In this document: piece after piece, positions 11,401 through 53,129 of the stretch
How positions within the stretch are numbered: the stretch's first letter is position 1
Layout of the letters: each line of letters opens with the position of its first letter
Sequence record: MT446411.1
DNA: 64,000 bases
Reading direction: 5' to 3' (one strand)
Origin: Escherichia virus TH40
Notes under the pieces: generated by a model
What the model saw: only the letters and a program-made list of their open reading frames with translations
Databases searched by the model: none
What the model was told of the DNA's origin: nothing
Translations under genes and position numbers: made by a program

Positions 11401-11996
11401 ACGTTTCTCATAGATGGATGCATTGACTTAGACCTGATTTCCTGTTGCATTGCTGCATTACTATCAATCTGTGGTCTACCTTCTATTATTATACCATCAA
11501 TTTCTACAGCAAAAGACTTAAAGTTAAAAGTTGCTGTTGCGTTGATAGCAGGGTCAGAATCTTCTTTATATGAATACTGAATCTCTGACAGGTCGGACGG
11601 CCATGCTCCATAGTAATGGATTGACATGACAATTTTGTCCTTGTTGTTATCTAAGATATGAAGCGTGACCGCTTCGGGACGACCCTTTGGATGCCATGCC
11701 TTTGATTCGTGTGTGATGTAGTTATTAAGCGAGAGCATCCATTTATAGATATCAAGCCATGCTCTTAAGTCTTTGTCACACAGAAAGTTAACAATCAGCG
11801 GGTCGAATTCTATTGTACTACCAGGAAGGCTGGAGCGATTTATACCTTGCGTTCCGCCGGGGACATCTGTAACAGGAATGTGAACTCCTGGGAGGGTAAC
11901 GTCTTGAACGTTGAGTTTAAAAGTCTGTGTGAGGTTTGAGTCGCTTACCTCTAATATAAAGTTAGTCGTGTTAGTTTGATTATATAAACCTGACAT
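11397..11996 (-). CDS. 3: gp3 tail completion / sheath stabiliser (start uncertain)
   Basis: Position between genes 1 and 2 as in T4; start placed at internal ATG with AAGGTG RBS. Confidence 0.55.
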   Translation of the reverse strand: MSGLYNQTNTTNFILEVSDSNLTQTFKLNVQDVTLPGVHIPVTDVPGGTQGINRSSLPGSTIEFDPLIVNFLCDKDLRAWLDIYKWMLSLNNYITHESKAWHPKGRPEAVTLHILDNNKDKIVMSIHYYGAWPSDLSEIQYSYKEDSDPAINATATFNFKSFAVEIDGIIIEGRPQIDSNAAMQQEIRSKSMHPSMRNV

Positions 11997-12007
11997 AGTG
12001 CACCTTG

Positions 12008-12046
12008 TTTGCTTTAAACCAATCAGTGTTATAATGGTTCTAGACC
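12008..12046 (+). promoter_or_regulatory. MotA-box middle-type promoter (TTTGCTTTA, 13 nt, TATAAT) followed by GGTTCTAGACC, oriented antisense to gene 2
   Basis: Plus-strand TTTGCTTTA-N13-TATAAT-GGTTCTAGACC in the gene 3 / gene 2 intergenic gap. Confidence 0.4.
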
Positions 12047-12081
12047 TTTTGTCCTTACCAATAACACTGACCGATAATAGA

Positions 12082-34905: not shown

Positions 34906-36885
34906 ATGGCTTTATTATCCCCGGGCATTGAGCTCAAAGAAACAACGGTACAAAGCACTGTTGTTCGTAACGCGACGGGTCGTGCGGCGCTGGTTGGTAA
35001 ATTCCAGTGGGGCCCAGCTTTCCAGGTAACTCAAATTACAAACGAAGTTGAACTTGTTGATTTGTTTGGTGGTCCGAATAATGAAACAGCAGATTACTTT
35101 ATGAGTGGGATGAACTTCCTGCAATATGGTAACGACCTCCGTACTGTACGTGTTGTTAACCGTGACGAAGCTAAAAACGCATCCCCTATTGCTGGCAATA
35201 TTGAAACTACCATCGTAACTGCTGGTACAAACTATGCTGTCGGTGATGTTATTCAGGTTAAACACAACCAGACTGTTGTTGAACCGGCTGGCCGTGTGAC
35301 CAAGGTCGACGTTGATGGTAAAATTCAGGCAATCTTTATTCCTACCGATAAGATTATTGCATTTGCCAAAACTATTAACCAGTATCCTAATTTAGGTAGT
35401 GCATGGACTGCAGAAGTTACGACCACTTCTTCCGGTGTATCTGGTACCATCACTGTTGGGAAAATTGTTACCGATTCTGGCATTCTGTTGACTGAAGCAG
35501 AAAACAGTGAAGAAGCAATTACTTCTCTGGAATTCCAGGCATCACTGGCAAAATATGCAATGCCGGGTGTTGTTGCTCTTTATCCAGGCGAAATCGGTTC
35601 GACTCTGGAAGTTGAAATCGTATCTAAAGCTGAATTTGAAAAAGGCGCAGCTGCAAATCTGAATATTTTCCCGGGCGGCGGAACGCGTGCTTCTGTGGCT
35701 CGTGCCGTGTTTAACTATGGCCCTCAGTCTGAAAACCAATATGCAATTATCGTTCGCCGCGATGGTGCAATCGTCGAAAACGTTGTTTTGTCTACCAAGC
35801 AGGGCGAAAAAGATGTTTACGGTAATAACATTTATCTGGATGACTACTTTGCAAAAGGTACTTCCAACTACATCTATGCAACATCTCGCAACTGGCCTGT
35901 AGGCTTCAGTGGTATCATCAATCTGTCTGGTGGTATTTCTGCAAACGATAAGATTACCGCTGGTGATTTGATGCAAGGTTGGGACCTGTTTGCTGACCGT
36001 GAAGCACTGCATATTAACCTGCTTATCGCTGGTGCAGTAGCTGGTGAAGGTGATGCGACCGCTTCCACTGTTCAGAAACACGTGGTTTCTATTGCTGACG
36101 AACGTCAGGATTGTCTGGCATTTATTTCCCCGCCGAAAGGTCTGTTGGTTAACGTTCCTCTGACCCGTGCAGTGGATAACCTGATTGACTGGCGTACAGG
36201 TGCTGGCGCATTTGATACTGATAACATGAATATCAGCACGACTTATGCAGCGATTGATGGCAACTATAAATATCAGTATGATAAATATAATGACGTTAAC
36301 CGTTGGGTTCCTCTGGCAGCTGATATGGCTGGTCTGTGTGCTCGTACTGATGATGTTTCTCAGCCTTGGATGTCTCCGGCTGGTTATAACCGCGGTCAGA
36401 TTCTGAACGTTCTGAAATTGGCTGTTGAACCACGTCAGACCCAACGTGACCGCATGTATCAAGAAGCTATCAACCCGGTTGTTGGTTTCGCAGGTGGTGA
36501 TGGTTTTGTTCTGTACGGTGATAAGACTGCAACTAAAGTTCCATCTCCGATGGACCATATTAACGTTCGTCGTCTTACGAATATGCTGAAGAAAAATATC
36601 GGTGATGCATCCAAATATAAACTGTTTGAGCTTAACGATAACTTCACTCGTGCATCATTCCGTATGGAAACTTCTCAATACTTGGATGGTATTCGTGCAC
36701 TTGGTGGCATTTATGAAGGTCGTGTAGTTTGTGATACTACTAACAACACCCCGTCGGTCATAGACCGAAATGAGTTTGTTGCTAGCATTTATTTTAAACC
36801 TGCGCGCAGCATCAACTACATCACTCTTAATTTCGTAGCCACTAGCACTGGTGCTGATTTTGATGAGCTGATTGGGCCACAATAA
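34906..36885 (+). CDS. 18: gp18 tail sheath protein
   Basis: 659 aa identical length to T4 gp18; MALLSPGIELKETTVQS; late promoter 34869-34876. Confidence 0.95.
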   Translation: MALLSPGIELKETTVQSTVVRNATGRAALVGKFQWGPAFQVTQITNEVELVDLFGGPNNETADYFMSGMNFLQYGNDLRTVRVVNRDEAKNASPIAGNIETTIVTAGTNYAVGDVIQVKHNQTVVEPAGRVTKVDVDGKIQAIFIPTDKIIAFAKTINQYPNLGSAWTAEVTTTSSGVSGTITVGKIVTDSGILLTEAENSEEAITSLEFQASLAKYAMPGVVALYPGEIGSTLEVEIVSKAEFEKGAAANLNIFPGGGTRASVARAVFNYGPQSENQYAIIVRRDGAIVENVVLSTKQGEKDVYGNNIYLDDYFAKGTSNYIYATSRNWPVGFSGIINLSGGISANDKITAGDLMQGWDLFADREALHINLLIAGAVAGEGDATASTVQKHVVSIADERQDCLAFISPPKGLLVNVPLTRAVDNLIDWRTGAGAFDTDNMNISTTYAAIDGNYKYQYDKYNDVNRWVPLAADMAGLCARTDDVSQPWMSPAGYNRGQILNVLKLAVEPRQTQRDRMYQEAINPVVGFAGGDGFVLYGDKTATKVPSPMDHINVRRLTNMLKKNIGDASKYKLFELNDNFTRASFRMETSQYLDGIRALGGIYEGRVVCDTTNNTPSVIDRNEFVASIYFKPARSINYITLNFVATSTGADFDELIGPQ

Positions 36886-37029
36886 TTATCATCGCTTAGA
36901 ATGAATTAATCAGTTAGAAACCGTAGAACCATTATACAGTGGTATAAATAAAAGCATAATCGGTTCTACGGGCTCCTGTGGTTGATTCTGGGAAGCCATT
37001 ATCTTGAGATGATGAATCATATTACCTAG

Positions 37030-45973: not shown

Positions 45974-45993
45974 GGGCCTTGCGGCCCTTTTTT
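45974..45993. terminator. hairpin GGGCC-TTGC-GGCCC + TTTTTT between gene 24 paralogue and rnlB
   Basis: Stem-loop plus T-run. Confidence 0.6.
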
Positions 45994-46999
45994 ATTCACT
46001 AATTAATGCAATCCATACATGTCTTAATGTTTCTTTTACATTTGCGATAAGTTGCTTTTTAACTTCAACAGGATTTTCTGTCTGGGTTAATTCAAGTCCT
46101 TCACGACCCGCTTCTTCCAGGATATCCTGGACAGTCAAACCCATTACCTTTCCAAAATCCTTAGGTGTTACTTCCCCAATCTTACTGATAACATTATTGA
46201 TACGGTTGACAGTCACATAATCAGTAAACTTCCATAAAACATCCAGGTCTTCCTGTGACAACACAACTGCAGCTTTAATAGGCTTATCAGACTTTTTCTT
46301 TTCACTGAATTTAGAGTTCTTGCATTTAATCGCTACGCGCTCACCGTTAGGTAACCATGCAGGAACATCAGGTTTTAATACAAATCCTTCAGCAGTGAAT
46401 ACTTTACCTTCCACCTTTGCATCAAAATCAGTGGTATTTGCTGTAGTCAATCCTGCGTTATCCACTGTAAAATTGTAATCAGGGACCACAGAATCCAGGT
46501 CATTAGGGAGCTTAATCAAGTCTTCAAAGCTACCTGTGGCCAGGCGTGGGGCAACTTTAAACTTATGAATAATACAAAAGGCTTCCATAAGTGTGTCAGT
46601 CAGGACGGATTCAGAGCCATCTTCCTTAGTAACGCGGATATCAAACACATAGAAATCTTTATCGCCGTAATCCACATTCTTCTGAATACCTGTACCAGCA
46701 AACTCGCCATAAATCTGGTAAGCCTGGTAATTAATATCCTGCAAAAGTTTCTGCACAGATTTAATAGAATCTGTGTAGTTCTTTAATACAATTTCATAAC
46801 CATAGAAATCTTCTGCAGGTAGAATAGGTCCAGTGCGTTTCGCGCATGTCACATTGTCTTGTTCAATGATTAATGAAAAGTTGGTACCATGAATTTTCTC
46901 ACGAGCTACCCATTCACCGCTGGTGAAGCCTTGCAGGCGAATCTTTTCAATGAACTTGTTATTATAGTGATTTTCAAGGCTGTTGTATTTCTTAAACAT
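45992..46999 (-). CDS. rnlB: RNA ligase 2 (Rnl2)
   Basis: [19 protein letters not shown]...[16 protein letters not shown] (KxHG nucleotidyl-transferase motif), 335 aa, matches T4 Rnl2. Confidence 0.95.
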
Positions 47000-47082
47000 A
47001 ATCTCTCACTTTTGATGTTATAAATATCATTATAAATTAGACCCGCTATACTTTCTTTCTCTGAAAGGAATTAATAGTCACA

Positions 47083-47124
47083 AAGGGTCTAGAACCATTA
47101 TACCGCATTTTTATTTGAAGCAAA
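47083..47124 (-). promoter_or_regulatory. MotA-box middle-type promoter (TTTGCTTCA, 13 nt, TATAAT) followed by GGTTCTAGACCC, upstream of rnlB
   Basis: Reverse-strand reading TTTGCTTCA-N13-TATAAT-GGTTCTAGACCC. Confidence 0.5.
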
Positions 47125-52406: not shown

Positions 52407-52640
52407 TTAATTTTCCTTAAAGTATCTCATACCAGTATCTATCCCCATATTGTGAGAATAGAACGCATCATCGATGTATCCTGCAAATTTACCTTTAACA
52501 TAGATAACATCTTCACCGCAAGGGTGGTCAGCGCAGATACGAATATCTGCACGATTCAATTTCCATTCCTTCATCATATACTTAATTTCTTCTTCGAACT
52601 CTTCGTCTTGGTTAAACGCATCGTCGATAGAATATCGCAT
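52407..52640 (-). CDS. UvsY.-1-like protein
   Basis: 77 aa reverse ORF immediately downstream of uvsY. Confidence 0.5.
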   Translation of the reverse strand: MRYSIDDAFNQDEEFEEEIKYMMKEWKLNRADIRICADHPCGEDVIYVKGKFAGYIDDAFYSHNMGIDTGMRYFKEN

Positions 52641-53074
52641 TATTTGCCTGCCTCGAATTGTCTTATTTCTAACATATGTTTAAGTGCGAAACTTCGCGAC
52701 TTAACACCATCTAATGCAGCGCTACAGAAGTCCTGGAGTAGTGCCCAATACTGAATTGAAGTATCAATCTTCAGTATGTTTGAATCTGCTGCCATGACTG
52801 TTTTCAATTCTGACTTCTCGTATACATCCATGCATACTTCTTCCCCAGGGTCACCTCTTCCCGTATAATGGTCTAGTCGTTTTTTCAGTGCAGTTTTCTT
52901 CTGAATCTCAAGACGCATTATTTCTTTCTTGCAGTTGGTATACAATCTCAACCATTTGCTATGCAACAAAACGTTGTTTTGTGTTTCATATTGAAGTTGC
53001 GTACCATCAATTTTTAAATCTGCATCTAACTCATCCTGAAAGACTTCTAACTTATATTCAATCTCTGTTTTCAT
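52640..53074 (-). CDS. uvsY: UvsY recombination mediator
   Basis: ...LQYETQNNVLLHSKWLRLY...LDHYTGRGD...ALKHMLEIRQFEAGK matches T4 UvsY; MotA-box middle promoter upstream. Confidence 0.9.
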   Translation of the reverse strand: MKTEIEYKLEVFQDELDADLKIDGTQLQYETQNNVLLHSKWLRLYTNCKKEIMRLEIQKKTALKKRLDHYTGRGDPGEEVCMDVYEKSELKTVMAADSNILKIDTSIQYWALLQDFCSAALDGVKSRSFALKHMLEIRQFEAGK

Positions 53075-53088
53075 AATGTATCCAATGT

Positions 53089-53129
53089 AAGGGTCTAGAA
53101 CCATTATACAGCCATAAAATTAAAGCATT
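53089..53129 (-). promoter_or_regulatory. MotA-box middle-type promoter (ATGCTTTA, 12 nt, TATAAT) followed by GGTTCTAGACCC, upstream of uvsY
   Basis: Reverse-strand reading ATGCTTTA-N12-TATAAT-GGTTCTAGACCC; T4 uvsY is known to have a middle promoter. Confidence 0.55.

Follow-up and report, generated by a model that had tools for sequence, protein, structure and literature searches.

A repeated element at middle-promoter start sites of Escherichia virus TH40 as the putative core module of a promoter subclass in T4-like phages

The 64,000-nucleotide stretch of Escherichia virus TH40 analyzed here (MT446411.1; hereafter the window) carries the 11-mer GGTTCTAGACC immediately after the -10 hexamer TATAAT of three middle-type promoters, located before rnlB, before uvsY and between gp2 and gp3. 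With moderate confidence, the element is read as the discriminator, start-site and initial-transcript module of a small and distinct subclass within the MotA-dependent middle promoters, with copies that undergo concerted evolution. On this reading as a whole, held with the same moderate confidence, GGTTCTAGACC(C) would be the downstream half of the promoter itself, not a separate adjoining site or a palindromic operator. The window was assigned to a T4-like phage of the genus Gaprivervirus (VR20, VR7, SP18), with pEC-M719-6WT.2 the best match (99%) for the region around the rnlB site. The whole genomes of the relative VR20 (170,336 bp) and of T4 (NC_000866) were used for comparison. Sites were numbered 1 (12030, +), 2 (47102, -; the site at which the original prediction was placed), 3 (53108, -) and 4 (36936, -).

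The element and its promoters in the window

12010..12047 (+): site 1, gp2/gp3 class promoter; MotA box TGCTTTA at 12010-12016, 13-bp spacer, TATAAT at 12030-12035
12036-12047 (+): site 1 core, GGTTCTAGACCT; predicted +1 is the A at 12042
12023-12032 and 12061-12070: arms TCAGTGTTAT and ATAACACTGA of a 10-bp inverted repeat spanning the -10 and core of site 1
47085..47122 (-): site 2, rnlB class promoter; MotA box TGCTTCA at 47122-47116, 13-bp spacer, TATAAT at 47102-47097
47096-47085 (-): site 2 core, GGTTCTAGACCC; predicted +1 is the A at 47090
45992..46999 (-): rnlB (RNA ligase 2), the gene served by site 2
47039..47044 (-): GGGTCT in the rnlB leader, pairing with the 5′-terminal AGACCC (47090-47085); this stem is specific to this copy and is kept in VR20
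53091..53127 (-): site 3, uvsY class promoter; MotA box TGCTTTA at 53127-53121, 12-bp spacer, TATAAT at 53108-53103
53102-53091 (-): site 3 core, GGTTCTAGACCC; predicted +1 is the A at 53096
52640..53074 (-): uvsY, with start ATG at 53074
36919..36971 (-): site 4, diverged class promoter; MotA-like box TGCTTTT at 36956-36950, 13-bp spacer, TATAAT at 36936-36931
36930-36919 (-): site 4 core, GGTTCTACGGTT; predicted +1 is the A at 36924

Joined to the hexamer, the element forms the 17-mer TATAATGGTTCTAGACC, of which the window holds exactly three copies, at 12030-12046 (+), 47102-47086 (-) and 53108-53092 (-); at sites 2 and 3, which lie on the minus strand, the plus-strand letters are the reverse complement, GGGTCTAGAACC. 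When up to three mismatches were allowed, 0.15 matches to the 17-mer were expected from shuffled sequence, and none of 100 shuffles reached three. The bare 11-mer with up to two mismatches was not enriched (12 matches against 9.4 expected in the window), so that it is the exact, hexamer-linked copies that carry the signal. The whole of VR20 holds just three occurrences of the 11-mer, one at each orthologous place, and neither in the window nor in VR20 was the GGTTCTAGACC motif found apart from TATAAT. The three-copy element was confirmed, and the motif search proposed at that time returned it as commoner than chance in its 17-mer form, with the same three copies and no others in complete VR20. 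A fourth, related site that had been overlooked, TATAATGGTTCTACGGTT, was found at 36936-36919 (-), with four mismatches.

A MotA box lies 12-13 bp upstream of TATAAT at all three exact copies, while the other four TATAATGG sites in the window lack one. Sites 1-4 all show the layout of a MotA-dependent promoter, namely a MotA box centered at about -30 and a perfect TATAAT, with spacers of 13, 13, 12 and 13 bp, respectively. The genes motA and asiA are annotated in VR20; they fall outside the window, so that the phage's own set is taken by proxy.

Site 2 lies between the stop codon of 24.2 (47130) and the rnlB ATG (46999) and is directed at rnlB. Site 3 lies between gp25 and uvsY and is the positional orthologue of T4 PuvsY, that is, of ori(uvsY)/oriF; in the T4 record, oriF is marked at the promoter of uvsY. 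Site 1 stands in the gap between two minus-strand late genes, gp2 (stop 12082) and gp3 (ATG 11996), and reads antisense into late gene 2 with no credible open reading frame (ORF) downstream. Site 4 is likewise antisense, between gp18 and gp19. The description of the copies as standing before three otherwise unrelated genes was therefore inaccurate, since site 1 is antisense and non-coding and drives no gene.

Several local features surround individual sites. A perfect 10-nt inverted repeat, CCGTAGAACC (36971-36962) and GGTTCTACGG (36930-36921), brackets the promoter at site 4, places its MotA box and -10 in a 31-nt "loop" and is kept in VR20; it may form a hairpin in the late mRNA, or may occlude the promoter when extruded. 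The repeat at site 1 is a local intergenic feature and not a feature of the class, and JS98-type loci carry different inverted-repeat arms at that position. A hairpin or cruciform common to these promoters was rejected: among the members, only sites 1 and 4 have 10-bp repeats, and these have unlike arms. Downstream of site 4, a 75-amino-acid ORF with a TTG start (36655-36882, -) lies opposite the 3′ end of gp18 and is probably spurious. In VR7, VR25, UPEC07 and TH22/TH55, gp2 and gp3 are separated by an inserted gene for a MobB-like HNH homing endonuclease. The VR7 gene (L007 1536-2238; window equivalent ~12047-12081) starts ~35 bp past the antisense core on the opposite strand, and in VR7 and like genomes the antisense gp2/gp3 promoter reads straight into the inserted gene. 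The minimum of cumulative GC skew in the window falls in the 12-14 kb bin adjoining site 1; it is not readable as origin evidence because it coincides with the switch in gene orientation at gp4/gp53.

At site 3, a longer uvsY ORF (465 nt, as annotated in SP18 and VR20) would begin at an ATG at 53104, within TATAATGG. That ATG is built from the TATA-ATG-G of the -10 and discriminator and lies upstream of the predicted transcription start. In fact, uvsY probably begins at the ATG at 53074, whose product (MKTEIEYK...) can be aligned with T4 UvsY, and the longer version looks like a systematic mis-annotation. Elsewhere in the window, at ~43.4-45.97 kb (+), relatives carry two tandem gp24 paralogues ("capsid vertex protein I and II"; VR20 L001 410-2974), compared with a single gene 24 in T4.

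Members of the proposed subclass and probable concerted evolution of the core

In a strict scan of VR20 (TGCTTNA, 11-13 nt, TANNNT), 26 MotA-box candidates were found, only four of which combine TATAAT with GGT. These four are the three sites above and a promoter antisense within gene 34 (TATAATGGTCCCAGAGCG), the orthologue of T4 P34i = oriG; the remaining candidates have A/T-rich sequence after the -10. With a looser scan, two more came in: the gp18/gp19 copy and one in antisense orientation at srd/modA. A T4-specific form of the core, TCTAAGTCC, stands at five places in T4:

11885 (+): antisense, srd/modA; core GAATCTAAGTCC
53337 (-): PnrdC.7; core GGTTCTAAGCCC
75988 (+): antisense, gene 3/2; core GGGTCTAAGTCC
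115383 (-): PuvsY/oriF; core GAATCTAAGTCC
153023 (-): P34i/oriG; core GGTCCCAGAGAG

Mapped T4 starts are available from the Hinton catalogue for the MotA-dependent promoters PnrdC.7 (53325), PuvsY (115371) and P34i (153011), and all three are the A seven nt after TATAAT. Because the mapped starts fall at the seventh nucleotide, GGTTCT is assigned to the discriminator, the A of TCTAGA to +1 and GACCC to the beginning of the RNA. The proposal that these middle-type promoters share an element beyond the MotA box and -10, at the transcription start, is upheld by the fit of the +1 at the T4 counterparts. The two antisense T4 members, at srd/modA (~11866-11910, +) and gene 3/2 (~75968-76010, +), have a MotA box and TATAAT and point into modA and gene 2, respectively, with predicted starts near 11897 (+) and 76000 (+). 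The srd/modA member and PuvsY share 20 identical bases (GGTATAATGAATCTAAGTCC).

Beyond T4 and VR20, an antisense promoter with a MotA box and TATAATGG is present at gp2/gp3 in the JS98 group, Karamvirus-type phages and further lineages as well as in T4; when five lineages are compared, no other block between the two genes is invariant. The srd/modA antisense copy was found in T4, VR20 and one distant lineage. JS98 has a class promoter before rnlB with the core of its own lineage (GGGTCTAGGTCC); in T4, neither the 24.2/rnlB junction nor the gap between genes 18 and 19 has a class promoter. Further sense members stand before nrdC.7 and cd.3, and with the orthologues of T4 PuvsY (oriF) and P34i (oriG) included, we count ~5-7 class promoters per genome. 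The positions occupied are the same across genera, down to gp3 identities of ~50%. Within gene 34, T4 and VR20 agree at every codon under the MotA box and TATAATGGTCCCAGAG, synonymous positions included, while the spacer codons vary, and the promoter window ranks 20 of 1271 in nucleotide identity.

About half of the class (gp3/gp2, gp18/gp19, srd/modA and within gene 34) is antisense or non-coding in orientation and reads into neighboring genes (late genes, or early genes at srd/modA) with no gene or terminator downstream. From this arrangement we infer that the transcript, or the act of transcription, would be the product at the antisense members, because no gene or terminator follows.

Position preferences were compiled from 53 non-identical members. 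Outside the hexamer, the best-conserved positions are -6 (where G was imposed by the search pattern), -5 (G, 43/53), -3 (T, 43/53), -1 (T, 47/53), +1 (A, 42/53) and +3 (G, 40/53), together with T at +8 (38/53). In most class transcripts, the G/C-rich first 5-6 nt are followed by a U-run (e.g., window 12048-12051), a combination that might favor early release of very short RNAs.

From lineage to lineage the core changes, but copies inside one genome agree, as illustrated by the PuvsY and gp3/gp2 antisense promoters:

Gaprivervirus/this window: PuvsY core GGTTCTAGACC; gp3/gp2 antisense core GGTTCTAGACC
T4: PuvsY core GAATCTAAGTCC; gp3/gp2 antisense core GGGTCTAAGTCC
JS98: PuvsY core GGTCCTATGGTT; gp3/gp2 antisense core GGTCCTAGGTCT (JS98-type pattern GGKYCTAGGTC)
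Karamvirus types: PuvsY core GGTTTTGAGTTC; gp3/gp2 antisense core GGTTTTGAGTTC

In the Karamvirus types, an 18-mer occurs in exactly two copies per genome (4/4 complete genomes). When the pairing of genomes was permuted exhaustively over seven lineages, 10 of 5040 arrangements did as well as the true one (p = 0.002). The identical tracts measure ~17-24 nt. The rnlB leader also contains, at 47030-47050 (-), a degenerate promoter-like copy (TATAGCGGGTCTAATTTATAAT) that lacks a MotA box, resembles the T4/JS98 core GGGTCTAA and provides the 3′ arm of the 5′-terminal stem; it is possibly the relic of an older copy.

A promoter of the putative subclass has a MotA box, a perfect TATAAT 12-13 bp further on, then G-6 G-5, a run of pyrimidines, A+1, and a G/C-rich start that gives way to a T-run, and the module would consist of the discriminator GGTTCT (-6 to -1), A+1 and the first transcribed GACCC (+2 to +6). 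These promoters would be MotA/AsiA-dependent, with a consensus -10 and a G-rich discriminator that, judging from what is known of sigma-70, would be contacted by sigma region 1.2, and with initiation at a pyrimidine(-1)/purine(+1) step seven nt after the hexamer. The expected outcome is a strong, precisely positioned start for an RNA polymerase that is unable to use the -35. Copies would be identical in this genome as a consequence of the core evolving in concert, each lineage with its own version; short-tract gene conversion between dispersed copies is most likely the cause, and gene conversion and a trans-acting factor are the candidates for the within-genome co-variation at +2 to +6.

Several observations weigh against this interpretation. 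The catalogue of identified T4 middle promoters, with nearly 60 entries, lists neither antisense T4 member, and its only antisense entry is P34i. (A genome-wide T4 table from differential RNA sequencing comprises 150 transcription start sites, 22 of them antisense.) The boundary of the class is fuzzy: T4 PuvsY has GAA, not GGK, after the -10, and T4 PnrdD (46473-46441, -) is a near-member, TATAATGAATCTG, whose seventh position is G and not A. T4 early promoters likewise show G-6, a pyrimidine run and A+1. Promoter strength by itself leaves the lineage-specific co-variation at +2 to +6 unexplained, and a co-evolving trans-acting factor would give the same co-variation. The A+T content downstream of the class is only ~1 standard deviation above that of other candidates and is not decisive for origin function beyond site 3. 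Finally, in an energetic proxy for R-loop propensity, the difference between RNA:DNA and DNA:DNA nearest-neighbor energies over 50 nt (parameters of Sugimoto 1995 and SantaLucia 1998), T4 oriF and oriG are mild outliers (z ~-1.0 and -1.1) and the antisense members fall at +0.2 to +1.0.

Alternative readings of the element

T4 oriF and oriG each combine a MotA-dependent promoter with a downstream unwinding element, and the R-loop formed by the transcript primes replication. It is conceivable, although we consider it unlikely, that all class members, antisense ones included, are transcript-primed R-loop origins of this type, with the G/C-rich start anchoring the 5′ end of the primer. PuvsY and P34i, the two T4 R-loop origins that are proven, belong to the class and their orthologues keep the signature. 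The antisense members are laid out as oriG is, a middle promoter against a late gene with no gene to express, and three of the four predicted 5′ RNAs in the window are unstructured. The five T4 members lie 0.06-5.7 kb from five different mapped origins (nominal p ~0.001-0.002, with a proximity threshold chosen post hoc), and no MotA-type promoter is nearer to oriE than the gp3/gp2 member. However, three and four catalogued promoters are closer to oriA and oriC, respectively, and only for oriE is the class member the nearest of MotA type. Downstream A+T content is slightly raised (0.62-0.78 at +10 to +60, against a background of 0.63 ± 0.09), with the proven oriG type lowest, and the hybrid energetics of the antisense members, given above, are unfavorable. 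The sense members PnrdC.7, PrnlB and the cd.3 promoter resemble ordinary gene promoters. According to a T4 review, oriF and oriG share little homology, no motif is common to the origins and no middle-mode promoter lies near oriE, which uses an early promoter; R-loop formation at oriF is described there as independent of specific sequence. By orthology, site 3 is likely to supply an origin primer, a role that is unproven for the other sites. The middle-mode promoter itself is present throughout, and positional orthology to a T4 origin holds for site 3 and for the VR20 gene-34 promoter, which lies outside the window; sites 1, 2 and 4 have no proven T4 origin counterpart. A T4 primase GTT site in the displaced strand was judged by eye and dropped, as the T4 and JS98 cores lack GTT.

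A broader version, which strikes us as more doubtful still, is that oriF, oriG, gp3/gp2, gp18/gp19 and srd/modA form a dedicated family of middle promoters whose product is the transcript. These would serve to prime or license replication or, for example, clamp loading for late transcription, and not gene expression, with a core that co-evolves with a lineage-specific factor. If true, a class promoter would stand 0-6 kb from each of the five mapped T4 origins, and oriE would gain the MotA-type promoter that has been missing near it.

A shared operator was the first suggestion made for the element: a phage DNA-binding regulator sitting on the start site would switch this subset off (or on) together, with specificity and sites drifting by lineage. 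We hold this to be improbable. The co-variation of cores within a genome is what a co-evolving factor and its sites would produce, the core is a 4-5 of 6 near-palindrome centered at -1/+1 in this lineage and a few others, and origins are shut off late in infection, according to the review. But the near-palindrome, which is present here as the TCTAGA variant, is not a property of the class. Over 27 cores of several lineages, mean dyad symmetry was 2.67 of 6 pairs, against 2.72 for the null, with the observed mean reached by 3587 of 5000 shuffles, and the Karamvirus and gene-34 cores pair at only 1-2 of 6 positions. The motif, with three copies in 170 kb and no enrichment of relaxed copies, never stands away from TATAAT, and its best-conserved positions (-6, -5, -3, -1, +1) are those expected to matter to RNA polymerase. 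The palindromic operator was accordingly rejected, its appearance stemming from the TCTAGA variant, and the regulator claim was not supported: symmetry across lineages equals the null and the motif does not occur apart from the hexamer.

The second suggestion, a shared 5′ RNA end (AGACCC...) recognized for stability, processing, capping or translation control, fared no better and is, in our view, very improbable. Conserved bases do reach into the RNA (+1 to ~+10, with T prevailing at +7 to +9), and according to a T4 preprint, promoters that give NAD-capped RNAs are enriched for A+1 and for a "TG motif downstream of the -10." The 5′ AGACCC of the rnlB leader pairs with GGGUCU ~47 nt downstream, in a fold with a minimum free energy of -14.3 kcal/mol (z = -1.70). 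The four predicted 5′ RNAs (+1 to +80; sites 1-4) have no shared fold, with z-scores of +1.32, -1.70, +0.11 and +1.32, and three of the four are no more stable than their own shuffles. An Rfam scan of the window returned two tRNAs only and no family on the element. Half of the copies have no coding sequence or conserved terminator downstream, and half of the element (-6 to -1) is untranscribed, leaving only 5-6 conserved bases in the RNA in this genome. A common RNA end for processing or translation, as first proposed, therefore found no backing in structure, in Rfam or in the gene content of half the copies. Two related candidates were discarded. A discrete antisense small RNA was suggested by a terminator-like hairpin 122 nt past site 1, which is not conserved in T4 or JS98 types; no convincing terminator was found past site 4, and none is conserved after the antisense promoters. 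The resemblance of GGTTCGAATCC to a tRNA T-arm was dropped, as it would leave stems of no more than 2-3 bp and put the start site within the "loop."

Least probable of all is that these are ordinary promoters only and their identity a neutral by-product of recent duplication or gene conversion: recombining promoter cassettes (PeSL, PmSL) are documented in T4-type phages and the identical tracts are short (~17-24 nt), but the same positions are occupied across genera at gp3 identities down to ~50%, synonymous sites of gene 34 are frozen under the element, the antisense promoters are the sole conserved blocks in variable intergenic DNA, and such copies would not retain G-6 G-5, YYY and A+1 in every lineage.

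T4 middle promoters and origins are textbook systems, and reviews report no motif common to the origins. If the promoter subclass is real, it provides a sequence criterion that parts a handful of special middle promoters from ordinary ones, places conserved antisense MotA-type promoters inside T4's own late-gene clusters, and shows a promoter core of 12-20 bp evolving in concert at loci that are tens of kilobases from one another; it also bears on what makes a T4 promoter an origin. Should the element be only the "best possible core promoter," it would still supply a useful annotation rule and a strong, compact promoter part.

Comparison with known systems

At E. coli sigma-70 promoters, a G-rich discriminator next to the -10 prolongs the life of the open complex, and transcription starts ~7 nt past the hexamer at a pyrimidine-1/purine+1 step. 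The class resembles this pattern in having G-6 G-5, a pyrimidine run and A+1 seven nt after TATAAT, to which the mapped T4 starts conform, whereas its co-variation at +2 to +6 and its T-run at +7 to +9 are not explained by these rules.

The T4 middle-promoter consensus given in the review consists of (a/t)(a/t)TGCTT(t/c)a near -30, an 11-13 bp spacer and a sigma-70 -10, and it ends at the -10 or TGn. Like these promoters, which use MotA and AsiA for sigma appropriation, the class has the MotA box, the spacer and the -10. Unlike ordinary middle promoters, the putative subclass adds a conserved discriminator, start and initial transcribed sequence, and about half of it is antisense.

With T4 oriF and oriG, the class shares the layout MotA box, TATAAT, G(G/A)N-YYY-A+1, and sites 1 and 4 mirror the gene-less antisense oriG. 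In contrast to those two origins, the signature of the core is shared here by other promoters too, ordinary sense ones among them.

PeSL and PmSL are repeated promoter cassettes of T4-type phages that have been proposed to recombine (Arbiol et al., 2010; Comeau et al., 2014). A PeSL is made up of a stem-loop, an early promoter (a middle promoter in nt-1) and a Shine-Dalgarno sequence, and lies in hyperplastic regions beside variable ORFs. The elements described here resemble them as short dispersed promoter repeats that are similar within a genome and different between lineages. They do not share the stem-loop, Shine-Dalgarno sequence and hyperplastic location that mark these cassettes, no inverted repeat being common to the class; the class elements instead lie in the genome's conserved core (late clusters, uvsY, gene 34), often in antisense orientation.

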